Positions 46,417 through 63,479 of a DNA stretch of 64,000 nt are shown here, piece by piece (position 1 is the first letter of the stretch; each line of letters starts with the position of its first letter). The notes beneath the pieces are model-generated. The model searched no databases. It saw only the letters and a list, made by a program, of their open reading frames with translations, and was not told the DNA's origin. Position numbers and translations under genes: made by a program. Source of the stretch: an uncultured Flavobacteriaceae bacterium (GTDB lineage: Bacteria > Bacteroidota > Bacteroidia > Flavobacteriales > Flavobacteriaceae); contig OY969790.1 of NCBI GenBank assembly GCA_963703125.1, positions 2,575,832 through 2,639,831 of the forward strand, read 5' to 3'.

Positions 46417-46685
46417 GAAATAGAGCCGGAAGGATTACCCTGCGGTGCTCCTAAATGGCTGCCAATGCTGCAAATAAAAATACCCATCGCTATCACGATG
46501 GGCATTTAAAATCATTCAAAAACGTTCAAACAAGCTTGGCCTTTTTGAATGCCTTTAGCCGCACGGTATTTTTGAGTGTCGTGGAGCTGGAGACGGCCGA
46601 GCGTATAGAAAATGCCCGGTGGGCATTTTCAGCGAAGGAGCGAGCCGGCGCACTGGCGTTCGACTCCCGCTGGCGTAATGAACAA

Positions 46686-46707
46686 AGCCACCCGAAGGTG
46701 GCTTTTT
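46686..46707 (+). terminator. Intrinsic terminator hairpin (AGCCACC-CGAA-GGTGGCT followed by a T-run)
   Basis: Perfect 7-bp stem with the same tetraloop as 46392-46416. A T run reaches 46707. Confidence 0.55.
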
Positions 46708-46928
46708 GAGTGGAGCCGGAGGGTCTAGAACCTAGTTCTTAAAACCGTTATATATAAGGCGTTTTAAGAGTTTTAATTTTTATGCTCACCGAATAGGTGA
46801 CTTTGTCTGAATAAGAGTTATATCTACAAAGACAAATAATTGCAATACATGGTTTTTGAAAACTGTAGTAATCTAAATACCATTTAATTAAATCTATTAG
46901 CCATACTGTTGCACTACATTAAATATTG

Positions 46929-46961
46929 ATTCGTCTATACAAATCTTCCATTCGACTATAC
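46929..46961 (+). promoter_or_regulatory. Phased direct repeats ATTCGTCTATAC / ATTCGACTATAC (21-nt period); candidate LytTR-type operator
   Basis: The two repeats are 11/12 identical and lie 58-90 nt upstream of the ATG at 47019. Confidence 0.45.
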
Positions 46962-47018
46962 TTGTCTATTTTTTGAATCGAATAATTAGTAATTTGTGTT
47001 ATAGATTAATACTCAAAG

Positions 47019-47420
47019 ATGAATATACTATTAATAGAAGACGATCAAATAGAAGTAATGAAGTTGCAAAGAACAGTTTCAAAACTTGGCTTAAAGCATA
47101 CAATTGTTGAAGCTAAAAATGGTGAAGATGCCTTAGAAATTCTTCAATCTGGTCAAAAATTACCTGATATTATTCTTTTGGATTTAAATATGCCGAGAAT
47201 GAACGGAATAGAATTTTTGGATATTTTAAAAAATGACAATCAATTAAAATATTTGCCCACAATAATATTGACAACATCTGAAAATAGGGCAGACTTGCTA
47301 AAATGTTATGAGGCAGGAATTGCTGGATACGTTGTAAAGCCTTTAAAATACGAAGATTACGAATCTAAAATGAGGAAATTAATGGACTACTGGGAAGTAA
47401 ATCAACTGGTTAAAGGCTAA
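47019..47420 (+). CDS. Single-domain response regulator (CheY-like receiver)
   Basis: 133 aa with EDD at the N-terminus, the phospho-acceptor context IILLDLNMP, and VVKP. Confidence 0.9.
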   Translation: MNILLIEDDQIEVMKLQRTVSKLGLKHTIVEAKNGEDALEILQSGQKLPDIILLDLNMPRMNGIEFLDILKNDNQLKYLPTIILTTSENRADLLKCYEAGIAGYVVKPLKYEDYESKMRKLMDYWEVNQLVKG

Positions 47421-47496
47421 TAAAAAACTTCATTTCACAACATAAATTTTACAATTGTCATAATATTCCTACGTTTGTTGAATTAAAATTTAACAG

Positions 47497-48039
47497 ATGA
47501 AAGGTATTGTATTTACTGAATTTTTAGAAATGGTTGAGGGAACTTTTGGTCTTGAAACTGTTGATACCATTATTGAAAACTCAAATTTACCCTCCGAAGG
47601 TATTTATACTTCTGTAGGAACGTATGATTTCAATGAAATGGTAGCCTTAATCACTGCGCTTCATAATAAGACAAAAGTACCGGTAGATGATCTTATTTAC
47701 ACGTTCGGTCATTTTCTTTTCACCAGTCTTGCTAAGGCACATCCAGAAGTGATATCCAATTACTTATCTCCAATGAATCTCTTGTATTCTATAGAAGATC
47801 ATATTCATGTACATGTTAAAAAGTTATATCCAGATGCAGAGCTTCCAAGTTTTACCATTCTAGATAAAACGGATACATCCATATCCATGATCTATAAATC
47901 ATCCAGAGGACTTTATCGGCTGGCGCATGGTCTTATGGAGAAATGTTTTGAACAGTTCAACAAAACGGCCAAAGTTAGTTATGAACTCATAAAGCAAGAC
48001 GGCACTGAAGTTAAATTTGATATTGTCCAAAATGGATAG
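47497..48039 (+). CDS. H-NOX (heme-NO/O2-binding, HNOB) domain protein
   Basis: 180 aa with MKGIVFTEF at the N-terminus. DHIHVHVKKLYPDAELPSF aligns to the sGC-type proximal-His region. The YxSxR motif is present as YKSSR. Confidence 0.85.
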   Translation: MKGIVFTEFLEMVEGTFGLETVDTIIENSNLPSEGIYTSVGTYDFNEMVALITALHNKTKVPVDDLIYTFGHFLFTSLAKAHPEVISNYLSPMNLLYSIEDHIHVHVKKLYPDAELPSFTILDKTDTSISMIYKSSRGLYRLAHGLMEKCFEQFNKTAKVSYELIKQDGTEVKFDIVQNG

Positions 48040-50404
48040 TCAAGAGAAAGAAATTGAGTTATTAAAACGTGCCCTAACTCGCCAAAAAAAAGCAAGGATT
48101 GCGGCAGAGCAGATTCTAGAGAAAAAATCGAAGGAACTCTACGATGTTACACACCATTTAAAAGAGGCGAATGCCAAGCTAGAGAATCTATTGACCGAGA
48201 AGACTTCTGAACTAGATGGAGTGTTTATCAACATTATTGACCCTTATGTGGTGATGGACATGAGTTTTAATGTGGTTAACATGAACACTTCGGCAAAACA
48301 ATTTTTAGGCTATGACCATACGAAAGAGTGTGTTAACTTAACCAAAATGGTTCATGAGGATTTTGTGGAATATACCGCAGAATCAATGAAATCACTTTTA
48401 AAAGTCGGCGTACTTAATAATTACAGGGCCAAAATCAGGACTAAGGATCAAACCGTTAAATGGGTCGAAATAAATAGTAGTCTAATATATAATCAAGAAA
48501 GAAAGCCTATTGCCGCTCAAGGTATAATAAGGGATATAACGAAGGAAATGGAGATAAAGCAGTTGCTGTCTGAGCAAAAGCGACAACTGGATATTATCTT
48601 GGAGAATTCCCCCTTGGGAGTTGTTCTAATAGCTGAAGGTAAATTCATCAAGGTGAATACGGCTTTTATAGATCTAATAGGTTATGGTGAACCTGAATTA
48701 AAAAACCTTACTGTACATGAAATAACCTACCCCGAAGATAAGAATGTGACTAAAGACTTCTTAGCTAAGATGAAAGATGAGGAGATTGACAATTTCACCG
48801 TTACAAAAAGATACTTGCGTAGAGATGGCAGTATTCTATATGCAAGATTATTGGTCAGTGCCGTAAGAAATATTGATGGTGTTGATGATTATCAAGTTGC
48901 CATTATAGAGGATATTCGCAAGGAAATGGAGGCTGAAGAACGATTAAAGGCTTCTGAGAATAGACTTTCTACGCTTATCTTAAATCTACAAATGGGCGTG
49001 TTGTTAGAAGATGAAAACAGAAAAATACAATTGACCAATCAGATGTTCTGTGATCTCTTTCAAATACCTGCCACTCCAGCGCAAATGGTTGGGGCGGATT
49101 GCACTTCGTCTGCCGAGCAGTCAAAATCACAATTTAAAGACCCAGAGGGTTTTGTAAAGAGAATCGACACCATATTAACTAACAAAAAGACTGTCTTATC
49201 CGATGAGTTGGAAATGATAGATGGTAGGGTTTTAGAAAGGGATTATATCCCCATTTTTAACGAAGATATTTATAAAGGTCATCTTTGGTCCTATCAAGAT
49301 ATAACGCTTAAAAAAAATTATGAGGCTACATTAAGTGCCGAAAGAGAGAAGTATAGTAGTATCATCGCCAACATGAACCTTGGGTTATTAGAAGTCGATA
49401 ATAATGATACTATTCAATTAGTGAATCAAAGTTTCTGTGCCATGAGCGGTTTTTCTGAAATTGAACTTTTGGGAAAAAAGGCAGCGGATGTTCTTAGGGT
49501 TAAAGAGAAAGAGGTCATTAAATCAAATGAGGACAAACGATTAAAAGGTGAATCTGATTCTTATGAAGTGCAAATTTTGGATAAATCGGGTGAAATAAAA
49601 CATTGGCTTATAAGTGGCGCCCCCCGTGTGGATAAAAATAATAATGTTATTGGTTCCATTGGTATTCATTTGGATATTACCAAACAAAAGGTATTAGAAT
49701 TGCAAAAGGAACAATTGGTGCAAGAATTGGAAAACAGTAACAAAGGGCTGCAAGAATACGCACATATTGTTTCGCATGACCTTAAATCACCTTTAAGGAG
49801 TATTAGTGCATTATCTACTTGGTTGCAGGAAGACTATAAAGATATTTTAGATGAGACCGGAAACCAACATTTGCAAATGATGCAAGAAAAGGTAGCTTCA
49901 ATGGATAAATTGATCAGTGGTATTTTGGAATATTCCACAGCCAATAGTTCTAATTTGGATAATACAACGGTAGACTTAAATACGGTTATCGATACTATAA
50001 AAGAAACGATTTATATACCGGATCATGTTGAATTATCGGTTCCTCAAAAGTTACCTAATATTATTGCCGACAAAACCAAAATGCATCAGTTGTTTCAAAA
50101 TATACTTTCAAATGCCGTGGTACATATTGAAAATGAAAAAGGGCTGGTAGAAGTTTTGTTTTTGGATAATGCGGACCAATGGCAATTTACCATTGCCGAT
50201 AATGGGGTAGGAATTCCTGAAAAACATCATAAAAAAATATTCGAAATATTTCAATCTGTAGGTAATAATGAACGGTCAACGGGGATCGGATTATCAATAG
50301 TTAAAAAAATAGTGGATCGGTACAATGGTGAAGTTTGGGTTGAAAGTGAGGTGGGCAATGGTACGAAATTCCATTTTACCCTAAAGAAACAAGACCTAGC
50401 CTAA
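48017..50404 (+). CDS. Multi-PAS sensor histidine kinase (HisKA plus HATPase_c, no receiver domain)
   Basis: 795 aa. It has an N-terminal coiled coil, several PAS-like repeats, the H-box IVSHDLKSPLR and the G-box GIGLSIVKK. It overlaps the H-NOX gene by 23 nt. Confidence 0.9.
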   Translation: MILSKMDSQEKEIELLKRALTRQKKARIAAEQILEKKSKELYDVTHHLKEANAKLENLLTEKTSELDGVFINIIDPYVVMDMSFNVVNMNTSAKQFLGYDHTKECVNLTKMVHEDFVEYTAESMKSLLKVGVLNNYRAKIRTKDQTVKWVEINSSLIYNQERKPIAAQGIIRDITKEMEIKQLLSEQKRQLDIILENSPLGVVLIAEGKFIKVNTAFIDLIGYGEPELKNLTVHEITYPEDKNVTKDFLAKMKDEEIDNFTVTKRYLRRDGSILYARLLVSAVRNIDGVDDYQVAIIEDIRKEMEAEERLKASENRLSTLILNLQMGVLLEDENRKIQLTNQMFCDLFQIPATPAQMVGADCTSSAEQSKSQFKDPEGFVKRIDTILTNKKTVLSDELEMIDGRVLERDYIPIFNEDIYKGHLWSYQDITLKKNYEATLSAEREKYSSIIANMNLGLLEVDNNDTIQLVNQSFCAMSGFSEIELLGKKAADVLRVKEKEVIKSNEDKRLKGESDSYEVQILDKSGEIKHWLISGAPRVDKNNNVIGSIGIHLDITKQKVLELQKEQLVQELENSNKGLQEYAHIVSHDLKSPLRSISALSTWLQEDYKDILDETGNQHLQMMQEKVASMDKLISGILEYSTANSSNLDNTTVDLNTVIDTIKETIYIPDHVELSVPQKLPNIIADKTKMHQLFQNILSNAVVHIENEKGLVEVLFLDNADQWQFTIADNGVGIPEKHHKKIFEIFQSVGNNERSTGIGLSIVKKIVDRYNGEVWVESEVGNGTKFHFTLKKQDLA

Positions 50405-50411
50405 AAGTAAC

Positions 50412-51539
50412 ATGAAAATAGAGCAATCAATAAAAATAGTAAACGGGCCATTTGTATATGAAAATGAAAGAATACAACTTAATAATCCTTTGGTTCTAGT
50501 TTTTGGCGATCGTTTCATGTTGGAACAGGAAGAACTGCTTGCTGAGGTGAAATCCATATATCCTACCGGGCATCTGGTTTTCGGTAGCACTTCTGGTGAA
50601 ATCATTGGAGCTACTGTTTTAGATAATTCGTTGACCATGACTGCGATAGAGTTTGAAAAATCTCAATTTTTGGTCAAGAAAAAGAATGTTTCTGATTTTC
50701 AAAATAACGATTTTGAATTGGGGAAATCACTTTTAAGTGAATTTCCTAAAGAAAATCTGAAGAATATATTTTTAGTGTCAGAGGGTAGTTTTGTGAACGG
50801 TAGTTCTTTAATTTCAGGATTTAAGAACGGAAATCAAGAGGTTAATATTTCTGGTGGACTTTGTGGTGATGGGAATCGGTTTCAAAAGACCCTTTGTTCT
50901 TATAATGAACGACCAAAGGAAGGTGAAGTGGTAGCCATTGGTTTTTATGGTGATACCTTAGAAATCAGTAGTGCAAGTTATGGTGGTTGGTCAACCTTTG
51001 GCCCTGAACGTAGCGTTACTAAATCAAAAGGAAATATATTATTTGAATTGGATGGTAAGCCTGCGTTAGATCTCTACAAGGAGTATTTGGGAGAAAAGTC
51101 GAAAGAATTGCCAAAATCAGCATTACTGTATCCACTTAATGTCTGTGTTGATGACCAACAACCCATTGTACGTACCATATTGAATATTAGTGAAACACAG
51201 AATACAATGGTACTTGCTGGGGATATACCAGAAGGTTCCACAGTGCAATTGATGATGTCTACTGTCGATGATATTGCTGAAGGTGCCTCTATAGCTGCTA
51301 AATTGGCCATGGAAAATCGGGTTCATAAACCCGAATTAGCTATCTTAATTAGTTGCGTAGGAAGAAAACTGGTTATGGGGCAACGTACCGAAGAGGAGAT
51401 TGAAGAAGTAGTTTCCATTATTGGAGAAGATACTGTTGTTACCGGTTTCTATTCTTATGGGGAAATGGCACCATTTTCTGGTCAAGAATCTTGTAGATTG
51501 CATAACCAGACCATGACCTTAACCTTAATTAGCGAATAA
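50412..51539 (+). CDS. FIST-domain sensory protein
   Basis: 375 aa. The C-terminal GFYSYGEMAPF..LHNQTMTLTLISE is characteristic of FIST_C. Confidence 0.8.
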   Translation: MKIEQSIKIVNGPFVYENERIQLNNPLVLVFGDRFMLEQEELLAEVKSIYPTGHLVFGSTSGEIIGATVLDNSLTMTAIEFEKSQFLVKKKNVSDFQNNDFELGKSLLSEFPKENLKNIFLVSEGSFVNGSSLISGFKNGNQEVNISGGLCGDGNRFQKTLCSYNERPKEGEVVAIGFYGDTLEISSASYGGWSTFGPERSVTKSKGNILFELDGKPALDLYKEYLGEKSKELPKSALLYPLNVCVDDQQPIVRTILNISETQNTMVLAGDIPEGSTVQLMMSTVDDIAEGASIAAKLAMENRVHKPELAILISCVGRKLVMGQRTEEEIEEVVSIIGEDTVVTGFYSYGEMAPFSGQESCRLHNQTMTLTLISE

Positions 51540-52597
51540 TGCATTCTTTACTGAGCAGACAATTAAGGAAAAAATTACCGGAGCGTTTTAGGGACGACCC
51601 CGGGCTTCAGGATTTTTTGAAATCCGTAGATCAGTCCTATGAGGATTTTGATGATAAGCTTACCATGCTGCAAAGAGCCACTACCATAAGTTCTAAAGAA
51701 CTGTCTGAAGCTAATAAAGAATTGTCCAATGAAGCCGAAAGGCAAAAATTGGTTTTGCAATCATTAAGCGAAGCAATGGTCAGTCTTAATTTAAACTTGG
51801 GTATTGATCAAGAAAAAGATATTGAAATACTACAAAATATTAAGGTGGAGAAATTGGCGGTCCACATTAAAAACTTGGCCATTAAAATTTCAAAGATCAA
51901 TCAAGAAAAGACTGATTTACTTAATGATTTAGAAGCAAGAAACGAATCTTTAAGTAATTATATACAGATTGTTTCGCATGATTTAAAGTCTCCCTTAAGA
52001 AATATCAACACATTAATGAGTTGGATTCTTGAAGAGGAAAAGGACGGTTTTTCGTTCGAGAGTAAAAAGAACTGTGTGCTGGTAACTCAAAATCTTTCTA
52101 AAATGGAGCAGCTCATTAGTGGTATATTAGATCACGCCACCATTGGGGCGGCGCCTGAACATAGAAGTGAGGTTTCCATTGATGAACTGATGATCGAAGT
52201 TAAAAATAATCTTGATGTTCCTGAGAATGTCACCTTAAAATGGACAGAGCATATGCCGACCATAACTATCGAGAAAATTTGGTTGGAGAAGGTATTTTAC
52301 CATCTTATAAACAATGCCTTAACTGCGGTGAAAAATAGGAGTGAGGGTAAAGTTTATGTAGGTTATGAAGAGGATAATAGCTATTGGAAATTTTCAGTTT
52401 CCGATAATGGTATCGGTATAGCAAATCGTTACCATAAAAGTATATTTGAAATTTTTAAAAAGTTAGAAAATGATACTGCCTCTGCAGGGGTAGGTCTTGC
52501 TATTTCGAAGAAAATAGTAAATCTATACCAAGGAGACATTAGTCTTTCATCAAAGGAAGGTGAGGGTAGTACGTTCTTTTTTTCTCTAAAAAAATAA
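51539..52597 (+). CDS. Cytoplasmic histidine kinase (coiled coil plus HisKA plus HATPase_c)
   Basis: 352 aa with H-box IVSHDLKSPLR and G-box GVGLAISKK. Its start overlaps the FIST stop (TAATG). Confidence 0.85.
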   Translation: MHSLLSRQLRKKLPERFRDDPGLQDFLKSVDQSYEDFDDKLTMLQRATTISSKELSEANKELSNEAERQKLVLQSLSEAMVSLNLNLGIDQEKDIEILQNIKVEKLAVHIKNLAIKISKINQEKTDLLNDLEARNESLSNYIQIVSHDLKSPLRNINTLMSWILEEEKDGFSFESKKNCVLVTQNLSKMEQLISGILDHATIGAAPEHRSEVSIDELMIEVKNNLDVPENVTLKWTEHMPTITIEKIWLEKVFYHLINNALTAVKNRSEGKVYVGYEEDNSYWKFSVSDNGIGIANRYHKSIFEIFKKLENDTASAGVGLAISKKIVNLYQGDISLSSKEGEGSTFFFSLKK

Positions 52598-52599
52598 TT

Positions 52600-52920
52600 A
52601 TGAAGCACGAACCAAACATTTCATATATTATTGAACTTTCAGGAGATGACTCAGACTTTCAAGAAAAGTTCATCAACATTTTAAAGGAAGAATTCCCAGA
52701 AGAAAAAGCCGTTTACCTAAACGCTGTTCAGCAAAAGGATTTTACAAACGCGGTGGAAATAGTACATAAACTCAAACATAAATTCAATATTTTAAGCATG
52801 TATGATGCATACGCTTTAGCGGTCACATATGAATTGGAATTGAAAAATAAAGATCTTGGTAACGATAAGGAATTCATTATAGCTTTAAATGTGGTGGATT
52901 CATACTTAAAAACTATTTAG
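52600..52920 (+). CDS. HPt-like histidine phosphotransfer protein (tentative)
   Basis: 106 aa, predicted helical. VHKLKHKFNIL resembles the HPt HxLKG motif. Confidence 0.45.
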   Translation: MKHEPNISYIIELSGDDSDFQEKFINILKEEFPEEKAVYLNAVQQKDFTNAVEIVHKLKHKFNILSMYDAYALAVTYELELKNKDLGNDKEFIIALNVVDSYLKTI

Positions 52921-52922
52921 CA

Positions 52923-53630
52923 ATGAATTGTATAATTATAGACGATGAGACCGCAGCTAGAGCGGTTGTTAGTCATCTTTGTTCCCAAATCACGGAATTA
53001 GATGTAATCGAAGAATTTGACAATGCGATAGACGCCATTAAATTTCTGAACCAACAAGTGATTGATGTGGTGTTCCTGGACATTCATATGCCAGGATTTT
53101 CGGGAATCGATTTTGTTCAAACACTTAAAAACCCGCCCCATATTGTATTGACTACCTCGGATACGGAATTTGCTATCGAGGCATACGAATATGAATCCAT
53201 AGTTGATTATTTGGTAAAGCCAATTACTCTAAACCGTTTTGAGAAGGCAATTAAAAAAATAAGGAACGTAAACGAGAACAGTAAACACAAAGAAAATGTG
53301 GTTCATAAAACACCTTTGAACCAAGAGCTTTATATCAATATAGATCGTAGACTTATCAAATTGAAGTTTGACGAAATTCAATTGATTATGGCACAAGGTG
53401 ACTATATCGATATAACTACCGAGAGTAAAAAATATAGGGTTCATACAACATTGAAGAAAATCAAGGAAAAATTACCGGAAACTATTTTTCTTCAAATTCA
53501 TCGTTCATACATCATTAACTTCACAAAAATCATTGATATCGAGGATAATAGTGTTTTAATTGAAAAAAACGTTGTTCCCATAAGTCGTTCTAGTAGACCA
53601 GAATTAATGAGAAGACTTAATTTGGTATAA
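52923..53630 (+). CDS. LytTR-family response regulator (receiver plus LytTR DNA-binding domain)
   Basis: 235 aa with VVFLDIHMP and YLVKP in the receiver. The C-terminal LytTR pattern is IHRSYIIN..PISRS. Confidence 0.9.
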   Translation: MNCIIIDDETAARAVVSHLCSQITELDVIEEFDNAIDAIKFLNQQVIDVVFLDIHMPGFSGIDFVQTLKNPPHIVLTTSDTEFAIEAYEYESIVDYLVKPITLNRFEKAIKKIRNVNENSKHKENVVHKTPLNQELYINIDRRLIKLKFDEIQLIMAQGDYIDITTESKKYRVHTTLKKIKEKLPETIFLQIHRSYIINFTKIIDIEDNSVLIEKNVVPISRSSRPELMRRLNLV

Positions 53631-53826
53631 TTTTTTCTAAGAGAAATATCTGTCAAAAAATTCAATAGTATTCTCCCTTTGATCTTAGGCCTAGATTCAA
53701 TGAACATGATACACTGAATACTGTAATATTAAAAGGTTTAAGTAATTAAGGCTGATTTTGATTTTGCCCTCTTAGAGGTAAAATTAATTACATTAAAAAT
53801 CAATTGGACTGTTGCAATTATCCAAT

Positions 53827-55899
53827 TTATTGATTTTCAATTCTTGTTTTCATCTTAGTATAGTAAATAGGCTTGTCTAGAAATAGCCATTTCAGTTTGC
53901 ACCCAACTTCAGTAAATTCAAAACCTGCTGCGGTAGCCGATGCAATGTTGCTATACTTTCCATATAGATTGGCACTAAATCTTTTTGAGAATTGATGCTG
54001 TACTGCTGCTTCAGCCCTGAAAATTGTTGTGTTGGGATCTTCTTCGACCTTTTGGAATCCGGTTGCCGCGCTGATCATATAAGTTGTCTTTTCAGAAAAA
54101 TTTCCACGTAGATCAGTAAAGATTTCAACGGCCTGATACTGTTCAGGACTAAAGTAAATAGTGGGTACTTGATTTTTAAACGTAATATATTGATAGTTTA
54201 CGCCCATTTTTAAAGCAGGTTTTTGCAATAGGGTGTAGTATAAAGAAGTAAATAGTAGGTTTCGGGTATTCGAATCACTTTGTTGGGTATGCATTAACTG
54301 TGTGTACCAACCTAAATTAATGTTAGTGCCCAAATTGTAATTTAATCCGTAATGGTGTTGTATAATTTCACGTTCAATAAGTTCCGCATTAAAGTTTTGA
54401 ACTTCTCGCTGATAGCCTAAAGTTAGATTCTGCAATTTTAAGGGCTCTAGCATTAATCTGGCCTCTAAGACCGGTTGGGTATAGGCATCGTCCATAAATC
54501 TGGAATTGTTAAAACCAATAACTGTTTTTAAAATGGTTTTGGGAAAAAGTTTGTACCGTAGACCGGCCAAGACTACATGAGAATTGGCTTTGTTATTGGT
54601 AACCGAATTCTCGGTTGTCCTATAAAAATAGGATACAGTTGTTCTGAATTTAGTGGAAAAGGGTACTTCAACTGTAGTATTGGTGTAAAATGCCACATTA
54701 TTGCCGTTATCAAAAGTATAGGCCGCATGTTCCTCAATACTAGGGGTATGCATTAGATTTAGTTTTTCTATAAAACCTAAAGCGTCCTTTTGATTTTCGT
54801 AAAAGGCGAGGGTTTTGTAAGCCATCTCGTAGGCTGGCAGTATTCTATCAGCTGCAAAAAGAGCGTTTGCCTTACCCAAATTCCCGTCAAAAGACGTACT
54901 ATCCTTTTTTAAAATAGCATCATAACTTTCTAAACTGCTTTTTACATCTCCGGTATATAGTCCCAAGGTTGCTTTTAATCCAAAAACCCAACTGGGAATT
55001 GGTTTATGATTTTCTAAACTATCAATTTGTTGCTTAGCTTGTTTAAATTTTCTGTTCCATATCATCGCTTGTATGTACCTGTCATAAGTACGTTCCTTGA
55101 GTTCCGTATCTGTTATTTTTGAAACTTTGATTTTAGCACGTTCAGCTATTTTAAGCGCTTCTTTGTCCTGTTCTCCAATATGTTCTGCTAATGCTATGCC
55201 GTTTAAGGCTGTAATTGAATCCTTTGGTGAGGTAGCATATCTTTGATACATCACCTTTGCACTATCAACCTGTTTTGTTATTAGATATAGGTTGGCTAGA
55301 TTGAGCAATGCATCTTTGTCTTCAGGAAAATCGATAAAGATTTTATTCAATAGTTCTTCTCCTTGGGTATAGTTCTGTTTATTTACAAACGTATTTGCGT
55401 AGCCCAAATTCATATATTTTCTAGAGGTAAGGGCACTAGTATTTCCAGGTTTGAGCAACAAAGCATTTTCGACCATTTCAAGCGCTGCTCTATACTCCTT
55501 TAAATTACTAAGTGTATTCGCATAGCCAAGAACGGCACCAAATTGATTTGGATTTTCCTTTACCAGTTCTGCATAAAGTGGTCTGGCCTTTTCATATTCC
55601 TCTGCCCACAAAAAAGACTCATTATAATTTATTAGTATTTCGAAGTCGTTGGGGTATTCTTTTAGCAACTGAGCAAATAAGTCAGTTGCCTTTTTTGGTT
55701 CTCCACTTAATCCTACTGCGCGCGCATAGCATAATTGGGCTGTTTTATTGTTAGGGTCGGATTTTAGATATGCTTCAAAAAATTCTTCGGCTTCTGGAAA
55801 ATTTCCCTTCTCCAATAAACCAAAGCCTTTGGTCATATCGGTTTGGGCCCAAATGATAGTAGTTGAAAATAGCAGGATTTGTAAGAGAAGTGTACGCAT
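53827..55899 (-). CDS. Outer-membrane TPR-repeat plus C-terminal beta-barrel protein (PgaA/BcsC/PelB-like export scaffold, tentative)
   Basis: 690 aa with a signal peptide. The N-terminal roughly 380 aa are TPR-like helical repeats. The C-terminal roughly 300 aa show an alternating beta-strand pattern ending in an aromatic-rich terminus. Confidence 0.55.
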   Translation of the reverse strand: MRTLLLQILLFSTTIIWAQTDMTKGFGLLEKGNFPEAEEFFEAYLKSDPNNKTAQLCYARAVGLSGEPKKATDLFAQLLKEYPNDFEILINYNESFLWAEEYEKARPLYAELVKENPNQFGAVLGYANTLSNLKEYRAALEMVENALLLKPGNTSALTSRKYMNLGYANTFVNKQNYTQGEELLNKIFIDFPEDKDALLNLANLYLITKQVDSAKVMYQRYATSPKDSITALNGIALAEHIGEQDKEALKIAERAKIKVSKITDTELKERTYDRYIQAMIWNRKFKQAKQQIDSLENHKPIPSWVFGLKATLGLYTGDVKSSLESYDAILKKDSTSFDGNLGKANALFAADRILPAYEMAYKTLAFYENQKDALGFIEKLNLMHTPSIEEHAAYTFDNGNNVAFYTNTTVEVPFSTKFRTTVSYFYRTTENSVTNNKANSHVVLAGLRYKLFPKTILKTVIGFNNSRFMDDAYTQPVLEARLMLEPLKLQNLTLGYQREVQNFNAELIEREIIQHHYGLNYNLGTNINLGWYTQLMHTQQSDSNTRNLLFTSLYYTLLQKPALKMGVNYQYITFKNQVPTIYFSPEQYQAVEIFTDLRGNFSEKTTYMISAATGFQKVEEDPNTTIFRAEAAVQHQFSKRFSANLYGKYSNIASATAAGFEFTEVGCKLKWLFLDKPIYYTKMKTRIENQ

Positions 55900-56015
55900 T
55901 ATTTCAGGTAAGATTAATACTACAAAACTTAACGTTCGTATTTGTTTTTTATTTCTAATTTCTTGAAGTATAAAGGTAGATAGTCTTCTTTCTAGCCGGA
56001 AGTAGGTTAATTGTT

Positions 56016-56048
56016 ATTCAACTATGCATAATTGCCATCGAACTATTT
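56016..56048 (+). promoter_or_regulatory. Phased repeats ATTCAACTATGC / ATCGAACTATTT (21-nt period) related to the 46929 repeats
   Basis: The first repeat matches ATTCGACTATAC at 10/12 positions. The AACTAT cores at 56020 and 56041 are 21 nt apart. The pair lies 79-111 nt upstream of the ATG at 56127. Confidence 0.35.
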
Positions 56049-56126
56049 TGTGTTGTTATGGTTGGCTAAGTGAGAGATATTTGCTTCATCAATAAAAGAA
56101 AACTTAACCTATTTAAAACATTTATT

Positions 56127-56429
56127 ATGGCATTACAAATTTCAGAAGCAAGAGGAGTATTTTCAGTATTTGGAGAATTGAACAGTTATACTGTAGCAAT
56201 TCTTACAAGACACATGAGTAATTATATTAAAAAGGACCAACGTGTCATTTTAAATTTAGAAAGGGTAAAAAAAATAGATGTTTGCGCGGCCTATACCATT
56301 AAGAAATTATTTATGGATGCAGTAGGTAAGAGCAGTATTTTTTCAATAGTGGCCATGGAAAATAAACAAGTGATGGATGTTTTTAATGAAACACAAATTA
56401 CATATATCGTAAGTAATGATCGGTACTAG
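56127..56429 (+). CDS. STAS-domain protein (anti-sigma-factor-antagonist-like)
   Basis: The likely start is MALQISEARGVFSVFGEL, and the layout LNLERVKKIDVCAAYTIKKL is STAS-like. No partner kinase or phosphatase is present in the window. Confidence 0.5.
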   Translation: MALQISEARGVFSVFGELNSYTVAILTRHMSNYIKKDQRVILNLERVKKIDVCAAYTIKKLFMDAVGKSSIFSIVAMENKQVMDVFNETQITYIVSNDRY

Positions 56430-56748
56430 ATATGTTTAGATCATAGTTTTCCCCCAGCACGTTGTTTTGGGTTGTCTACTTTATTGATTAGGTAGCTATT
56501 CATACAAAGTGCTTTTTTTATGGGATAGCAGATACTACAGTGGTATCTACTTTCCATTTTAATAGTAAAGTAGCACTTCCAGATTTATCGATAGTATTAT
56601 TTAAGATTTTTTAGGTAGGTAAAAGGCTTATCGTCAAAGGAATACCATTCGTCTACAGTAAATATCTATCCATCCTAAACTTCTCATTTTAAAGTATAGA
56701 TCATCGCAAATTTGCTTCAGAAATAAACTTAACCTAAAGTAAAAAAAG

Positions 56749-57987
56749 ATGAAACTAGCAATTGTTACAGCATTCCCACCGAGTAAAGTTACCTTGACCG
56801 AATACGGATATTATTTGGTAAAACATTTTCGATTACAGAAAGAAGTGACCGAAATTATTTTGATTACCGATAAAACACCAGAAGAAAAAGATCTTAATTT
56901 TAATGAGGAAGGGTGTAAGATTACCGTGAAAGAATGCTGGAATTTTAATGACTATTCAAATATTTTTAAAATCAGCAAGGTTTTAACGGACTCAAAACCA
57001 GATGCCGTATTGTTCAATCTTCAATTTTTAAAATTCGGAGATAAAAAAATACCTGCAGCGTTAGGTTTGCTACTGCCTTTTGTTTGCAAATTCAAGGGAA
57101 TTCCAACGATCTCTTTACTGCACAATATTTTAGAGCAAGTAGATTTGGATAATGCTGGTTTTACCTCGAACAAGGTATTACAGAAAGTATATAATTTTAT
57201 CGGTACCACGTTAACAAAATTTGTATTGGCATCAGATGTATTGGCGGTGACCATGAGCCAATATAAAAATATACTTGACAAAAAATACAAAGCAAAGAAT
57301 GTTGCCATAATTCCTCATGGCGCTTTTGACACGCCACCGGAGCCCGATTATACATTAAAACAAGGACCCAAACAAATCATGGCATTTGGCAAGTTTGGAA
57401 CTTATAAAAGAGTAGAAGTTTTAATCGAAGCTGTAGAATTGATTAGAAAAAAAACGAATGAAAATCTTGAAATTGTTATTGCGGGTACAGATAGCCCTAA
57501 TACACCGGGTTATTTACAGAACATAAAAGAAAAGTATGCACACGTAGAACAGTTACGTTTTACGGGGTATGTGGCAGAAGAAGATGTACCCGTTATTTTT
57601 AATGAAAGTGCAATGGTCATTTTCCCCTATACTTCCACAACAGGCAGTTCTGGAGTTTTACACCAAGCGGGTAGTTACGGTAAAGCAGTGGTATTGCCAG
57701 ATTTAGGAGATTTGAGTGTCTTGTTAAAAGAAGAAGGCTATAGAGGTGAATTTTTTGAACCTGAAAGACCGGAATCTTTGGCAAAAGCTATCGAAAAGAT
57801 ATTACAGAATGACTCATATAGGGTCAACCTGGGTAAGGTTAATTATAGTGCGGCTTGTTCGCTACCCATGTCAAAAATTACCCAAATGTATATCGATTAT
57901 TTTGAAGTTATTAAAATGGTCAAGTCCAAAGGATTTAGTTTGGATGTGAATAAAATTGATAAGAAACTACTAAGTCAAAGAGTTTAG
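56749..57987 (+). CDS. Glycosyltransferase family 4 (copy 1 of a paralog pair)
   Basis: 412 aa with FPYTSTTGSSGVLHQAGSYGKAVVLPD. By eye it is about 70 percent identical to the 60671-61900 product. Confidence 0.8.
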   Translation: MKLAIVTAFPPSKVTLTEYGYYLVKHFRLQKEVTEIILITDKTPEEKDLNFNEEGCKITVKECWNFNDYSNIFKISKVLTDSKPDAVLFNLQFLKFGDKKIPAALGLLLPFVCKFKGIPTISLLHNILEQVDLDNAGFTSNKVLQKVYNFIGTTLTKFVLASDVLAVTMSQYKNILDKKYKAKNVAIIPHGAFDTPPEPDYTLKQGPKQIMAFGKFGTYKRVEVLIEAVELIRKKTNENLEIVIAGTDSPNTPGYLQNIKEKYAHVEQLRFTGYVAEEDVPVIFNESAMVIFPYTSTTGSSGVLHQAGSYGKAVVLPDLGDLSVLLKEEGYRGEFFEPERPESLAKAIEKILQNDSYRVNLGKVNYSAACSLPMSKITQMYIDYFEVIKMVKSKGFSLDVNKIDKKLLSQRV

Positions 57988-58004: not shown

Positions 58005-58037
58005 GGGAAGCGACCTGGTTAGTCGCTCCCTTTTTTT
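58005..58037 (+). terminator. Intrinsic terminator
   Basis: GGGAAGCGAC pairs with GTCGCTCCC (one bulge), followed by T7 at 58031-58037. Confidence 0.7.
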
Positions 58038-58190
58038 ACATCTGAACTATTAGCAATAATGATTTTGAATCATTGAATTCAAACCCGATTTTAAAATCGG
58101 AAATCTTTTTCACAATTAAACACCTTAATTATAATATATATAAAATGCTTACGTTTTACGTAAGTTATATCCTACTATAATTTTTTTACT

Positions 58191-59330
58191 ATGAAAATAC
58201 TAACTATAGACGATCAGCAATTAATTCTCTTATCCGTAGAGAAACGTTTAATAGAACTAGGTTACACCGTCAAGACCGCGAATAGTGGTCAAAAAGGGAT
58301 AGAATTGTTCAAGTCATTTGAACCTGACCTTGTTCTTGTAGATATCAATATGCCAGATATGTCTGGTTTGGATGTGGTAAAGCATATTAAAAAAGAGAGT
58401 CAGAGAAATACTCCTGTTCTCATAATGTCCGGTAATACAGAGGAAAATATTATCATGAACGGTTTTACGCTGGGTATCGATGATTACATGAAAAAACCGG
58501 TGAGTTTAGATGAAATGGCCGCTCGTATCAAAAGGCTTATCGGTGCTCCTGAAGTTTCGAACAGCTCTAAGGGTTCATTAGATGCCAGAATGTTGCAGAA
58601 GAATTGTGTAGGTGTAGTTATACCTTGCTATAATGAAGAAGAACGGTTATTGGGAAAAGAATTTAAGGATTTCGCCCACAAAAACCTAGGCTACCATTTA
58701 TGTTTTGTAAACGATGGTAGTACCGATAGAACTCTTGAAATTTTGAGGGAATTAGAAAAAGGAAGCGAGAGTAATATTAGCATTTATAATTGCGAAAAAA
58801 ATGGCGGGAAGGCAGAAGCTGTTCGACAAGGTATGTTGCATTTAGCGCAGGATCCACAACTTGACTACATTGGTTTCTTGGATGCCGATTTGTCGACCGA
58901 TTTTAGGGATTTTGATGATTTAGTGGAAACCTTGGATACCTCCAATTTTAAGATTGTTAGTGGTTCTAGAATGAGCCGCATGGGTGCTGATATTACCAAG
59001 GAATCTGCACGTAAATTGATTAGTATGTCCATCAATCTTATTATCAGGACCATCTTAAAAATGCCTTTTAACGATACGCAATGTGGTGCCAAAGTGATGG
59101 ATAAATCATTGATTCCGCTACTTTTTAATAAACCGTTTATCACCAAATGGTTGTTCGATGTTGAAATGTTCATGAGAATGCGCAAATATTATGGTAAAAC
59201 GAAAGCCAAAGAATTGATTTGCGAACAGCCACTTAAAAGATGGATACATGCAGATGGTTCCAAGTTGTCCATGAAAGACTCCGTGAAAATTGTTGGCCAA
59301 TTGGCCAAGATAGCAATTTCATATCGCTAG
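58191..59330 (+). CDS. Response-regulator receiver fused to a GT2 glycosyltransferase (polyprenyl-phosphate hexosyltransferase-like)
   Basis: 379 aa. The receiver shows IDDQ, LVLVDINMPDMSG and YMKKP. The GT2 part shows VVIPCYNEE, FVNDGSTD, FLDADL and NDTQCGAK. Confidence 0.85.
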   Translation: MKILTIDDQQLILLSVEKRLIELGYTVKTANSGQKGIELFKSFEPDLVLVDINMPDMSGLDVVKHIKKESQRNTPVLIMSGNTEENIIMNGFTLGIDDYMKKPVSLDEMAARIKRLIGAPEVSNSSKGSLDARMLQKNCVGVVIPCYNEEERLLGKEFKDFAHKNLGYHLCFVNDGSTDRTLEILRELEKGSESNISIYNCEKNGGKAEAVRQGMLHLAQDPQLDYIGFLDADLSTDFRDFDDLVETLDTSNFKIVSGSRMSRMGADITKESARKLISMSINLIIRTILKMPFNDTQCGAKVMDKSLIPLLFNKPFITKWLFDVEMFMRMRKYYGKTKAKELICEQPLKRWIHADGSKLSMKDSVKIVGQLAKIAISYR

Positions 59331-59364: not shown

Positions 59365-60645
59365 ATGACTGCAATACAATTAGCCGTTAAAAGAATTTCG
59401 CCTCAACAATTATTCATGGGGAGTGCCTTTTTGGTAAATGGCGGCAATTATCTTTACAATTTGTTGTTGGGTAGAATGTTAGGCCCTGAAGCCTTTGCAG
59501 ATGCTGCCCTTCTGGTGACTTTATTGCTCGTATTATCCTTTATTGGGATGACCTTTCAATTGGCGACCACAAAATTTGCCGTTCTTTTTGACGAAGAACG
59601 ATGGACCAATTTTAAGAATACGATGTATCGTTATGCGTTAGTTTTTGGATTGGTTACCGGTACTTTAATCTTGTTTGGCGCTAATTACTTACAGGTCCTT
59701 TTTCGTACGGAGAATCACTGGATGTTCGTGGTATTTGCCATTTTCATGCCACTTTACTTTGTAATGAGTGTAAACCGAGGCAGGTTTCAAGGAAGGCAGG
59801 AGTTCGGAAAATTGGCCACTACCTACCAAACCGAAATGTGGAGCAGATTGTTGCTCACCTTTATATTCCTTTGGATATTACCTTTTCAATCTGCCATTTT
59901 AATCGCATTGGGCATTGGCGTTTCCTTTGTCTTTGGACTCATTCCTTCTGATCTGAAAGAAGTGAATATTCTATCGAAGGCAAAAATGGATAAGGTCGAT
60001 TTTAAGCAAGTATGGATATTTATAGGACTTACCGCTGGTTATGAATTAACCCAAATTATCATAAACAATAGTGATATTCTTCTGGTAAAACATTATTTCA
60101 ATGATACCGATGCCGGACTTTATTCTTCCCTAGCACTTATTGGTAGGGTAGTCTACTTTGTGGCTTGGATGTTCGTTATGCTGTTAATGCCTACCGTAAT
60201 TCAAAAACGAAAGGATGGCGAGGCCACTGCGCCCGTACTTTTTAAATATGTTTTGTTTATTGGAATATTGTCTGCATGTATCGTAGGTGTTTGTTTTTTA
60301 ATGCCAGAATTCATCATTCAGGTAATGTTCGGTGATGCATATTTATCTGTTGCCGGTTTACTTTGGCAGTATGCTTTGGCAACTTCCTTGTTCGCCATAT
60401 CCAACATATTCGCCTATTATTTTTTATCACTTGACCATTACGCTCCGGTTATTCTATCAGGTATTTTGGGATTGTCCCAGGTGCTTTTAATTGTGTTCTT
60501 CCACGATAGTCTTGCCGCTGTAGTACAGGTTCAAATTTTGGCAATGATTCTATTATTGGTAGCCCAACTGGTTTTCTTTTTTATCAAGAATAAAAAAGTT
60601 AGAATAGAGAAAAATACCAACCAATTAACCACCAGTTTGGATTAA
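59365..60645 (+). CDS. MOP-superfamily oligosaccharide flippase-like membrane protein
   Basis: 426 aa with about 12 TM segments. The N-terminal NGGNYLYNLLLGRMLGP is typical of Wzx/polysaccharide biosynthesis proteins. Confidence 0.65.
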   Translation: MTAIQLAVKRISPQQLFMGSAFLVNGGNYLYNLLLGRMLGPEAFADAALLVTLLLVLSFIGMTFQLATTKFAVLFDEERWTNFKNTMYRYALVFGLVTGTLILFGANYLQVLFRTENHWMFVVFAIFMPLYFVMSVNRGRFQGRQEFGKLATTYQTEMWSRLLLTFIFLWILPFQSAILIALGIGVSFVFGLIPSDLKEVNILSKAKMDKVDFKQVWIFIGLTAGYELTQIIINNSDILLVKHYFNDTDAGLYSSLALIGRVVYFVAWMFVMLLMPTVIQKRKDGEATAPVLFKYVLFIGILSACIVGVCFLMPEFIIQVMFGDAYLSVAGLLWQYALATSLFAISNIFAYYFLSLDHYAPVILSGILGLSQVLLIVFFHDSLAAVVQVQILAMILLLVAQLVFFFIKNKKVRIEKNTNQLTTSLD

Positions 60646-60670: not shown

Positions 60671-61900
60671 ATGAGATTAGCAATTGTTACCGCCTACCCG
60701 CCAAGTAAAGTTACTTTAGTAGAGTACGGTTATTATTTAGTGAAACATTTTAGATTGCAGGAGCGCGTAACGGAATTGATCTTGATTACCGACCGTACCG
60801 AAGCTTCCAAAGATCTTGATTTTGAAGAAGAAGGGTGTAAGATTACCATAGAAGAATGTTGGAGTTTCAATAGTTACAACAATATATTGAGTATAAACAA
60901 AGCGCTATCTAAAACCAAACCGGATGCCGTGCTGTTCAATCTCCAATTTTTAAAATTTGGGGATAAAAAAGTACCCGCTGCTTTAGGGTTGTTGCTGCCT
61001 TATGTTTGCAAACTGAAAGGTATACCAACAATTTCCCTGCTACACAATATTCTAGAGAAAGTAGATTTGGACAATGCCGGTTTTACCAAAAATCCTATCC
61101 TACAAAAAATATACAATCTCATCGGAACCACGTTGACACGTTTTGTTTTGGCTTCTGATGTACTTGCGGTTACCATTAGTAAATATGTCACCATATTAGA
61201 AGATAAGTACAAAGTAAGAAACGTTGCCCTTGTTCCCCATGGTTCTTTTGAAACGCCACCAGAGCCTTCTTATATTTTACCTAAAGGACCAAAACAAGTG
61301 ATGGCCTTTGGAAAATTTGGAACGTATAAAAAAATAGAGATCCTTATTGAGGCGGTAGAATTGATTCGCGCTAGAAGTACTGAGGATATTGAAATTGTCA
61401 TTGCAGGAACAGATAGTCCCAATACACCTGGATATTTAGATTCCATAAAAGAAAAATACAGTCATGTTCAACAAATTAGGTTTACAGGTTATGTGGCCGA
61501 ACAAGATGTGCCCAAGCTTTTTGGTGAAAGTGCTGTTACTGTTTTTCCTTATACCTCTACAACAGGAAGTTCTGGGGTGCTACACCAAGCGGGTAGTTAT
61601 GGTAACGCTGTTGTATTACCAGATTTAGGTGATTTGAGCACACTGGTAAAGGAAGAAGGATATGTAGGCGAATTTTTTGATGCCTATGATGCATCCTCCT
61701 TGGCCAATGCCATAGAAAGAATATTGGTGAACGATGCGCATAGGATAGAAATAGGTAAAACTAATTTCAAAGCCGCCTGTTCATTGCCGATGTCTGAAAT
61801 AACGAAGATGTATCTTGATTACTTTGAGGCCATAAAGAAGTCAAAGGAACAAGGGTTCAATTTAGATGTTTCCAATAAAAGTTCAGAATTGGTACACTAA
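60671..61900 (+). CDS. Glycosyltransferase family 4 (copy 2 of the paralog pair)
   Basis: 409 aa, collinear with the 56749-57987 product. Confidence 0.8.
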   Translation: MRLAIVTAYPPSKVTLVEYGYYLVKHFRLQERVTELILITDRTEASKDLDFEEEGCKITIEECWSFNSYNNILSINKALSKTKPDAVLFNLQFLKFGDKKVPAALGLLLPYVCKLKGIPTISLLHNILEKVDLDNAGFTKNPILQKIYNLIGTTLTRFVLASDVLAVTISKYVTILEDKYKVRNVALVPHGSFETPPEPSYILPKGPKQVMAFGKFGTYKKIEILIEAVELIRARSTEDIEIVIAGTDSPNTPGYLDSIKEKYSHVQQIRFTGYVAEQDVPKLFGESAVTVFPYTSTTGSSGVLHQAGSYGNAVVLPDLGDLSTLVKEEGYVGEFFDAYDASSLANAIERILVNDAHRIEIGKTNFKAACSLPMSEITKMYLDYFEAIKKSKEQGFNLDVSNKSSELVH

Positions 61901-61923: not shown

Positions 61924-61954
61924 AAGGAGTCTGCTTAATAGGGACTTCTTTTTT
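61924..61954. terminator. Candidate bidirectional terminator between convergent genes
   Basis: AAGGAGTC (61924-61931) pairs with GACTTCTT (61943-61950) with one G-T pair. A T run follows. Confidence 0.4.
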
Positions 61955-63479
61955 ATTCTACGATAATTTCAAAAACTGGTTTCTTTTTGCCTTCTGTGTT
62001 AATCAAGCCGAAGTAACGCTGAGGATTTTTACGCCACGGTAATCTACCCACTACACTGTTGGGTACTTCATCAAAATCATAAAGTGTCCATAAAACAAAG
62101 GGAATACGTTCCGCATTTAATGTAGCCTGCATTTCAGTATAATATTGAGTCTGGTCTTCAAGTGAACCTAAATATCCATTCCACAGACCATCATAAGAGG
62201 AATAGCCATACTCCTGTAAGACGATGGGTTTGTTGACCACTTTATTTTTTAGTTTTTTATAGGCCGTTAAAAAATCAACTGGTTTCCGATAATAATGGAA
62301 AGAAACAAAATCAATTTCATCAGATAAATTCTCTGCAGCTTCAGGAGTAGACCAACCAATGGTTATGGGAGTTTCAGCATCCCATTTTTGTATTTCAGTA
62401 ATCATTTGAGACAGCCAAGCCAGAACATTTTCTTTTCCCCTTGTTTCAAAATCAAGGTCGGGCTCATTTTTAATATCCCAGGCGATTAGCGCTTGGTGGT
62501 CTTTAAATTCATCAACTATAAATTGGGCATGTCTATGGGTCAAGGTCCAATCTGGTATGGAATAATCACCGTAAAAATCGAACAAGGTTAGAATCACATC
62601 CAAATTAGCGGCCGAGGCAATGTCCATTACTTTCTGCAGTTTTTCTATTTTTTCATTTTCAATATCCGCTTGACCGAAATCTTCATACGGTACAAAAATC
62701 CGTACGGTATTAAGTCCCATTTCATTGATTATTTTAAAGTCGGATGAAATAATGCTGTCATTGAATTTTTTGCCATACATGTCCCAAGGGGAATCCTTAG
62801 GGTAATAGTTGATGCCCTTTATATTTGAAATTTTACGGTTTAGTTCTGAAATTAGGGTTTGATTGTTCGCAATTGGTATGGAATCATTTTCTATCTCCAC
62901 CATATGACGGATGCGCCAAAAACCATCCTCCAATAGCATCATTACTTTATAGCTACGTTCAAATGCCTTTCTTAGAATAGCTTTCTCTCCATAAAAAAAT
63001 TCTTCATATCCTTTTACGTTTTTATCGGTGAACGTGATGATTTTTCCATCCGCACTATAAAAATCCAATTGGGGGTGATGCTCTAGGGTAGTGGTTTTTA
63101 TGGAGTTGTTGTTTTCTTTATTAAAATCGAGAATCCGAAATAACTTCACCCTTGCACTATCGGTATAATAATCGGCTACACCATAATGATTATTGGTGCT
63201 TAGGGCATCGTTTTTAACGAACCAAGATTTTAAATAATCCCGCTCTATTTCTCCCAAGGTTTGTTTTTCCATAGGTCGTCCTTCATTTTCAAAAGGATAC
63301 CATGTGACTTCAGGTCTGTAGCTTGAAGAAAGTTTGGCGGGCAAATGAAGCATAGTACTGCGATCTGCACCGGTATTTAAATAGGAGAAGATTGAACTTA
63401 TGCCATAGATGACCAGAGCGTTGAGTACGACAAAGGTGATGATTAAGAAAATTCGATAAAGCGTTCTATTCGTTTTCAT
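61953..63479 (-). CDS. Membrane-anchored GH5-like (clan GH-A) glycoside hydrolase
   Basis: 508 aa with an N-terminal TM segment. WDIKNEPD (NEP acid/base) and VLQEYGYSS (nucleophile Glu) fit a cellulase-family (beta/alpha)8 fold. Confidence 0.6.
   Translation of the reverse strand: MKTNRTLYRIFLIITFVVLNALVIYGISSIFSYLNTGADRSTMLHLPAKLSSSYRPEVTWYPFENEGRPMEKQTLGEIERDYLKSWFVKNDALSTNNHYGVADYYTDSARVKLFRILDFNKENNNSIKTTTLEHHPQLDFYSADGKIITFTDKNVKGYEEFFYGEKAILRKAFERSYKVMMLLEDGFWRIRHMVEIENDSIPIANNQTLISELNRKISNIKGINYYPKDSPWDMYGKKFNDSIISSDFKIINEMGLNTVRIFVPYEDFGQADIENEKIEKLQKVMDIASAANLDVILTLFDFYGDYSIPDWTLTHRHAQFIVDEFKDHQALIAWDIKNEPDLDFETRGKENVLAWLSQMITEIQKWDAETPITIGWSTPEAAENLSDEIDFVSFHYYRKPVDFLTAYKKLKNKVVNKPIVLQEYGYSSYDGLWNGYLGSLEDQTQYYTEMQATLNAERIPFVLWTLYDFDEVPNSVVGRLPWRKNPQRYFGLINTEGKKKPVFEIIVE

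Follow-up and report, generated by a model that had tools for sequence, protein, structure and literature searches.

The window analysed in this study is a stretch of 64,000 nucleotides (nt) from an uncultured Flavobacteriaceae bacterium (GenBank assembly GCA_963703125.1, contig OY969790.1), in which a seven-gene signalling operon with H-NOX and FIST genes is followed by a polysaccharide locus. A 16-nt box, CCATTC[GA]TCTACAGTA, recurs there as direct repeats with a 21-nt period at the promoter of the operon and upstream of two genes of the polysaccharide locus, a STAS-domain gene (promoter P1) and a GT4 glycosyltransferase gene (promoter P2). The boxes are conserved among related loci in sequence, spacing and promoter geometry, and they are missing where the gene of the operon-encoded response regulator with a LytTR domain (RR-LytTR, 52923-53630) is missing. 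We propose that the boxes are the operator of this regulator, with tandem 21-nt repeats at the operon promoter, P1 and P2 through which sensor signalling would switch on the operon together with the exopolysaccharide genes. The probability of this reading is estimated at roughly 0.75.

The 16-nt box at the operon promoter

Related loci were collected by a genome scan centred on the FIST gene, which yielded 80 loci with 10-kb flanks; in the closest relative (L001), the FIST protein is 97% identical to that of the window. By its FIST protein, the window belongs to Flavobacteriaceae close to Maribacter. Upstream of the first operon gene, nearly every related locus carries direct repeats of the form CCATTC[GA][TC]C[TG]ACA[GC]T. 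A 16-column matrix was trained only on these upstream regions in other genomes, with the window left out, and it was built from 142 sites in 74 of 76 loci, with a maximum score of 24.8 bits. The spacing of adjacent boxes in the operon-promoter regions of the relatives is exactly 21 nt in 66 of 68 pairs, and a box pair lies ahead of the first operon gene in 74 of the 76 related loci. In 1.58 Mb of related loci, 176 sites score at least 16 bits (5.5 expected), and 171 of these fall within the 9.4% of the sequence that is outside long open reading frames (ORFs).

The first-pass annotation of the window had taken the shorter TTCG[AT]CTA as the motif unit. The four 12-nt words that it quoted were found where it had placed them, and the first pair, ATTCAACTATGC and ATCGAACTATTT, is 21 nt apart as it had said. 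The element that recurs is nevertheless the 16-nt box, and TTCG[AT]CTA[TC] was rejected as the unit since it is too short. Exhaustive counting gave six window copies of TTCGWCTAY, with 1.15 expected. The three promoter-proximal copies (46930, 46951 and 56648) stand, but the other three (8894 and 21942 on the minus strand, 40843 on the plus strand) are attributed to chance because they lie inside ORFs and score only -2.4 to 4.7 bits with the matrix. Two further window sites, at 10912 (minus strand, 11.9 bits) and 58202 (minus strand, 11.5 bits), were also discarded, having neither a partner box nor the TTTG geometry described below; the number of such sites agrees with chance, 2.8 sites of at least 11.3 bits being expected per window.

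At the operon promoter of the window, ATTCGTCTATAC and ATTCGACTATAC (46929 and 46950) form a direct repeat matching at 11 of 12 positions with 21-nt spacing. This layout at the operon's own promoter, found in the window as well as in the 74 loci, implies that the regulator, if it binds the boxes, would be autoregulated. The predicted elements of the three promoters are as follows.

46927-46942, plus strand: operon box 1, TGATTCGTCTATACAA, 11.3 bits, starting 66 nt before the TTTG at 46993; orthologous boxes in 74 of 76 loci
46948-46963, plus strand: operon box 2, CCATTCGACTATACTT, 18.5 bits, with its start 21 nt downstream of that of box 1 and 45 nt upstream of the TTTG
46989-46996, plus strand: predicted sigma-A -7 element of the operon, GTAATTTG, read from the sequence
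56014-56029, plus strand: P1 box 1, degenerate, TTATTCAACTATGCAT, 5.65 bits, 113 nt before the STAS ATG at 56127 and 66 nt before the TTTG at 56080
56035-56050, plus strand: P1 box 2, degenerate, CCATCGAACTATTTTG, scoring -2.6 bits by the operon-trained matrix and 6.5 bits by the box-2 matrix; start 92 nt upstream of the ATG and 45 nt upstream of the TTTG
56076-56083, plus strand: predicted -7 element of P1, GATATTTG, matching at every position the consensus drawn from 63 unique related promoters
56645-56660, plus strand: P2 box 1, consensus, CCATTCGTCTACAGTA, 24.5 of 24.8 bits, 104 nt before the GT4 ATG
56666-56681, plus strand: P2 box 2, a weak variant, CTATCCATCCTAAACT, scoring 9.0 bits by the box-2 matrix
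56707-56714, plus strand: predicted -7 element of P2, CAAATTTG, with its TTTG (56711) 66 nt after the start of box 1

Promoter geometry and the whole-promoter model

The -7 element recognised by flavobacterial sigma-A has the consensus TAnnTTTG and occupies -12 to -5 (PMC9723704). Among the relatives, a TTTG is found exactly 66 nt after the box start for 68 of 84 strong non-operon boxes, and it belongs to the conserved GATATTTG. At the operon promoter of the relatives, the offset is 66 nt at 44 sites and 45 nt at 26 sites. All three promoters of the window reproduce these distances exactly, with box 1 starting 66 nt and box 2 starting 45 nt before the TTTG of the -7 element. Only four of the 28 window sites that score at least 5 bits show the 66/45 geometry, against a background rate of 5.9%, and all four are in the three promoters. 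With start sites placed from this geometry, the boxes would lie at about -74 to -59 and -53 to -38, next to the -33 region on its upstream side; box 2 would end near -38 because it starts 45 nt before the TTTG, provided that TAnnTTTG occupies -12 to -5.

A 74-column whole-promoter model was also used, consisting of box 1, a spacer, box 2, a second spacer and the -7 element. It was derived from 61 unique non-operon promoters of other genomes, from which the window and L001 to L003 were excluded, and its information content amounts to 1-2.3 bits per column in the boxes and the -7 element and 0.1-0.4 bits in the spacers. The scan of the window returned 52.1 bits at 56645 (P2), 27.9 bits at 46927 (operon) and 14.3 bits at 56014 (P1), and the next site scored 0.5 bits.

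Boxes at P2 and at promoters of related loci

P2 box 1 is the top match on either strand of the whole window, with E=1.5e-4 per window from the exact score distribution, so the claim that the GT4 site exceeds chance was borne out with a matrix trained on other genomes. It fits the family consensus far better than the operon boxes of this same genome do, and a comparison of copies within the window therefore understates it. The first-pass annotation had paired this site with TTATCGTCAAAG (56628-56639), 18 nt upstream. That partner was discarded: it scores -6.9 bits and has the wrong spacing, and it is not conserved, because L001, for all its 97% identity, reads TTATCACCAAAG upstream of the P2 box and L003 is unrelated there. 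The conserved second box is instead 21 nt downstream of the first; in P2-type promoters of relatives it is the variant TCATCCACCTAAA, to which the window sequence at 56666-56681 is orthologous, with a 1-nt insertion.

Boxes of at least 16 bits were found at the GT4 promoters of 23 of the 25 comparable loci (those with the LytTR gene and an upstream gap of more than 150 nt), and, among loci that have the LytTR gene, at no fewer than 31 of the 47 promoters divergent from the TPR gene. These non-operon boxes lie 104-114 nt before the start codons of GT4 genes, of flippase or STAS genes divergent from the TPR gene and, occasionally, of receiver-GT2 genes, in Maribacter, Cellulophaga, Flagellimonas, Croceitalea, Arenibacter and Zobellia. 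The P2-type box is held at its fixed distance in more than 20 genomes while the flanking sequence diverges. In four loci whose operon lacks the LytTR gene (L033, L036, L046 and L054; Euzebyella, Pseudozobellia and "Cytophaga" FL35), no box of at least 16 bits was found at any of the three promoters, nor anywhere in 21 kb, though the polysaccharide genes are present. The proposal that one motif links the phosphorelay operon and the polysaccharide genes as a small regulon is thus supported by comparative evidence: box pairs at nearly all operon promoters, boxes at GT4, flippase and STAS promoters in several genera, the almost exclusively non-coding location of the boxes and their loss at all three promoters where the LytTR gene is lost.

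About 20 loci have further boxes immediately 3' of the LytTR stop codon. For about a dozen relatives, this is a box pair followed by a conserved hydrophobic ORF of 37-39 amino acids (MK..L..LK....GLIGVL.SVI...), for example at 13241-13460 of L001, and in Flagellimonas and Croceitalea loci a box in this place precedes a secreted protein of about 830 amino acids. The corresponding part of the window (53631-53826) is without the small ORF and without the approximately 2.9 kb that L001 has between its LytTR and TPR genes. Two Flavobacterium loci without an H-NOX match (L069, 5648-6859; L078, 6606-6844; both minus strand) have between two and four near-consensus boxes upstream of the operon, on the strand opposite to it. 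Those of L069 adjoin a different polysaccharide cluster, with a PgaC-like GT2, a TPR porin and extra response regulators, and the placement of the boxes in the two loci therefore suggests that regulon targets differ between lineages.

P1 and its closest relatives

The STAS pair is the weakest of the three. In STAS-first loci of Flagellimonas, Cellulophaga and Zobellia, box starts fall at -110 to -113 and -90 to -92 relative to the start codon, and the window boxes start at -113 and -92; strong boxes are present at the position of P1 box 1 in L016, L023, L024, L049, L053 and L056. A TATTTTG within 56045-56051 was considered as the -7 element of P1 and discarded, since the alignment of the relatives puts the conserved element GATATTTG at 56076-56083. 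By whole-promoter scoring, the STAS pair can be recognised as a promoter of this type with weak boxes, because P1 ranks third in the window at 14.3 bits, far from the 0.5 bits of the next site. The earlier claim on the STAS pair is supported by this model and by the position of the pair, as in relatives, with the 66/45 offsets to the TTTG; its single-site and pair scores did not rise above background.

Evidence against the operator reading and alternative explanations

Several observations weigh against the proposal that RR-LytTR acts through the boxes at all three promoters. The P1 single-site scores are indistinguishable from background, as about 31 sites of at least 5.65 bits are expected per window, and the P1 pair score ranks sixth, no better than background pairs of window sites; the support for P1 comes from orthology, which speaks for descent and not for present function. 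Only one strong box is present at P2. Classical LytTR recognition sequences follow the 9-mer [TA][AC][CA]GTTN[AG][TG], and the box, compared by eye, does not appear to fit it. LytTR regulators encoded elsewhere in the genome could recognise the box, and the four LytTR-less loci probably represent one or two evolutionary events, not four. Finally, a terminator scan found a terminator-like hairpin with a T-run 3' of the GT4 gene (58009-58036), so that P2 may not control the genes farther downstream, which encode the receiver-GT2 fusion, the flippase and the second GT4.

The explanation that survives best besides the operator reading concerns P1: only P2 and the operon promoter would be live in this genome, and the sites at 56014 and 56035 would be the decayed relic of an ancestral P1 operator that is no longer bound. 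The scores of 5.65 and -2.6 bits, compared with 18-24.5 bits for P1 in most relatives, and a pair score no better than that of random window pairs favour decay, as does the weakness of P1 throughout the clade of the window (12.0 bits in L001 and 8.4 bits in L003). Yet P1 retains its spacing, the -7 element GATATTTG and the 66/45 geometry, the promoter model separates P1 from the next site by 14.3 to 0.5 bits, and low-affinity second-tier sites are normal for LytTR regulators, the algD-RB3 site of AlgR being weaker through one base change (PMC4064291). On balance the relic explanation is considered unlikely, though it is to be taken seriously.

The boxes may also be real cis-elements bound by a different protein that is encoded elsewhere, either a paralogous LytTR regulator or a transcription factor of another kind. 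LytTR regulators are numerous in Bacteroidetes genomes, and the view of this genome extends over 64 kb, which leaves room for such a protein. It is nonetheless an improbable explanation, as the box pair precedes the regulator-encoding operon itself in 74 of 76 loci, the boxes and the LytTR gene are jointly missing from four loci, extra boxes follow the LytTR stop codon in about 20 loci, and phased 21-nt repeats suit LytTR dimers.

Still a little less probable is that the boxes mediate repression or form part of an alternative-sigma promoter, instead of serving activation at a sigma-A promoter. AlgR does repress some of its targets (PMC4064291). The boxes are, however, upstream of the core promoter and not over it, ending at about -38 relative to a canonical, conserved -7 TTTG; their position is that of activating LytTR repeats (PMC6193735), and tandem 16-nt repeats are unlike a -35/-10 pair.

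Chance similarity in AT-rich intergenic DNA, for which it can be said that the short TTCGWCTA has 2.3 chance copies per window and that three of the six copies counted are chance, is already refuted for 56645 by its E-value and, given a box whose distance stays fixed across more than 20 genomes with diverged flanks, has a probability close to nil.

Proposed mechanism

Under the operator reading, signals reaching two sensor modules, H-NOX with the PAS kinase and FIST with the second kinase, would change the phosphorylation of the LytTR regulator, possibly by way of the receiver-only response regulator and an Hpt-like protein of 106 amino acids. A dimer of the phosphorylated regulator would then bind the tandem boxes and activate the operon and the exopolysaccharide genes, P1 more weakly than the others, and P2 would respond at a low level of regulator and P1 at a higher one. 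We infer the identity of the binding protein, whether it activates or represses, and where transcription starts, from comparative features of the loci; activation in particular is proposed because of the position of the boxes.

The 106-amino-acid protein is probably a histidine phosphotransfer protein. Its orthologues, as far as examined, share an invariant VHK[LI]KHK motif, its match to the Pfam Hpt family is sub-threshold (17.2 bits where the cut-off is 24.6; E=0.006), its only PDB profile match is weak (the Hpt domain of RcsD/YojN, 1sr2, E=0.79), and a single-sequence AF2 model reached a pLDDT of 52.8, too low for a fold to be assigned. A PDB sequence search with the LytTR regulator returned matches only to receiver domains.

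One gene of the polysaccharide locus (58191-59330, plus strand) encodes a GT2 glycosyltransferase with a receiver domain fused to it, and the fusion is kept in several relatives. This fusion suggests that the polymerising enzyme itself may be controlled by phosphorylation. A broader and rather speculative scheme, which we hold to be unlikely at present, would have a dual-sensor (H-NOX and FIST) phosphorelay control a synthase-type exopolysaccharide of marine Flavobacteriaceae at two levels without cyclic di-GMP (c-di-GMP), transcriptionally through the LytTR boxes at P1 and P2 and post-translationally through phosphorylation of the receiver-GT2 protein at its receiver domain. To our knowledge, c-di-GMP enzymes are scarce in Bacteroidetes. 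If the scheme were true, this two-level control would be a Bacteroidetes functional replacement for c-di-GMP-gated matrix synthesis.

Comparison with known systems

Described LytTR operators consist of repeats with 12 bp between them, lie a few bp upstream of -35 and commonly serve autoregulation (PMC6193735; PMC4227749). The closest layout is that of the AgrA P2/P3 promoters and of the LytTR Regulatory Systems (HdrR/BrsR), where direct repeats 12 bp apart, that is with a 21-nt period, lie just upstream of -35 and the regulator's own operon is positively autoregulated, as boxes at the regulator's own operon would allow here (PMC6193735; PMC4227749). The repeats there are of the ACCACTTAN or ACAGTTAAG types whereas those found here are CCATTCGTCTACAG, the promoter here is of the Bacteroidetes -33/-7 sigma-A type, and the targets are polysaccharide genes instead of peptides or bacteriocins.

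In sequence and in target type the boxes resemble those of AlgR of the Pseudomonas aeruginosa AlgZ/AlgR system, a LytTR response regulator that controls the exopolysaccharide alginate through algD and algC (PMC4064291). The AlgR core site CCGTTCGTC agrees with the 5' half of the box, CCATTC[GA]TC, at 8 of 9 bases, the variant CCGTTCATC at rhlI is also one base off this half, and weaker variant sites are lower-affinity positions (PMC4064291); about 10% of the family boxes collected here read CCGTTC. AlgR sites are, however, single 9-mers in both orientations at distances of -470 to +391, whereas the present elements are tandem 16-nt boxes with 21-nt phasing, one fixed orientation and a fixed distance to the -7 element. 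The input (H-NOX and FIST kinases instead of AlgZ), the phylum and the promoter type differ as well. Judged by these sequence features, the box joins the LytTR operator class as a new member.

Proteobacterial H-NOX sensors have been studied extensively, and their outputs are c-di-GMP enzymes or a quorum-sensing relay. In contrast, the predicted output here would be a LytTR transcription factor acting directly on polysaccharide promoters, and the operon also carries a second sensor module, FIST with its kinase. The H-NOX protein of the window retains the Y-x-S-x-R motif. The H-NOX/HnoK-type nitric oxide (NO) networks of Shewanella, Vibrio, Legionella and Silicibacter resemble the present operon in that the H-NOX gene adjoins a histidine kinase gene and that the output is tied to biofilm or matrix (PMC8738867; PMC4436077).

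In the literature searched, no paper was found on the box sequence or on an H-NOX/FIST/LytTR regulon in Flavobacteriaceae, Zobellia, Cellulophaga or Maribacter, and no H-NOX output pathway was found described in Bacteroidetes. A pathway that leads from an H-NOX/FIST operon by way of a LytTR regulator to exopolysaccharide promoters therefore appears to be undescribed in Bacteroidetes. The analysis yields an operator consensus, a fixed promoter architecture (66/45 nt before the -7 TTTG) and a defined set of predicted targets, namely the operon itself, a STAS or flippase promoter and the GT4 promoter of the linked exopolysaccharide locus, common to Maribacter, Cellulophaga, Zobellia, Flagellimonas and their relatives. 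Many of these Flavobacteriaceae were isolated from seaweeds. A path from an NO or redox signal over LytTR to a matrix polysaccharide is thereby made a testable hypothesis, and the matrix permits whole-genome prediction of the regulon in Flavobacteriaceae.

Gene context in the window and its relatives

The genes of the signalling operon and of the polysaccharide locus, assigned with Pfam unless stated otherwise, are listed below.

47019-53630, plus strand: seven-gene signalling operon, from the receiver-only response regulator through RR-LytTR, gene order kept across the 80 loci
47019-47420, plus strand: receiver-only response regulator
47497-48039, plus strand: H-NOX
48017-50404, plus strand: PAS histidine kinase
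50412-51539, plus strand: FIST protein
51539-52597, plus strand: second kinase
52600-52920, plus strand: Hpt-like protein of 106 amino acids, no Pfam match at the default threshold
52923-53630, plus strand: RR-LytTR regulator, Response_reg (E=1.4e-18) and LytTR (PF04397, E=2.5e-18), both above cut-off
53827-55899, minus strand: TPR/BcsC-like outer-membrane protein
56127-56429, plus strand: STAS-domain gene (PF01740, E=4.9e-8, above cut-off)
56749-57987, plus strand: GT4 glycosyltransferase
58191-59330, plus strand: receiver-GT2 fusion
59365-60645, plus strand: flippase-like protein
60671-61900, plus strand: second GT4
61953-63479, minus strand: GH2-like hydrolase

The signalling operon is kept in essentially all 80 loci, four of which are without the LytTR gene and a few without an H-NOX or PAS-kinase match, and in most of them it is followed by the TPR, STAS, flippase, GT4 and GH2 polysaccharide genes. 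The H-NOX protein matches HNOB (PF07700, E=4.8e-39), has its motif at Y133-x-S135-x-R137 and contains His102/104/106; the gene of the PAS-HisKA-HATPase kinase overlaps the 3' end of the H-NOX gene. The minus-strand protein at 53827-55899 matches several TPR families and BCSC_C (E=2.5e-5, 24.1 bits against a cut-off of 23.5), and its match to PgaA (TIGR03939, E=7.6e-14) is far under the cut-off of that model. The STAS protein also matches TIGR00377 below cut-off, and no partner-switching kinase or phosphatase for it was identified within the window.

Scans of the window for tRNA genes and Rfam families gave no matches, and a sigma-70 promoter scan, which is not informative for Bacteroidetes, found 35 promoters with 30.9 expected.

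In the predicted 5' leaders of the STAS and GT4 genes, CTTAACCT is present at 56103-56110 and 56728-56735, two of only three window copies, and in relatives aaaCTTAACCTATG abuts the start codons of both genes; the two sequences may represent a conserved leader or translation-initiation element. A second hairpin, CTTACGTTTTACGTAAG (58148-58164), lies just 5' of the receiver-GT2 gene, where no box is present and relatives keep ACGTTATATGTAAGTTAAATCTTAC, and it may be an attenuator or leader structure.

A stretch of about 290 nt between a GFO/IDH/MocA-family oxidoreductase gene (45240-46283, minus strand) and the operon promoter looks GC-richer by eye and contains an 84-amino-acid ORF (46455-46709) with no Pfam match. 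It is flanked by two terminator-like hairpins (46393-46416 and about 46679-46702) of near-identical sequence, CCACCCGAAGGTGG, and GAGCCGGA[AG]GG comes after each of them. This stretch looks like a small insertion or duplication.

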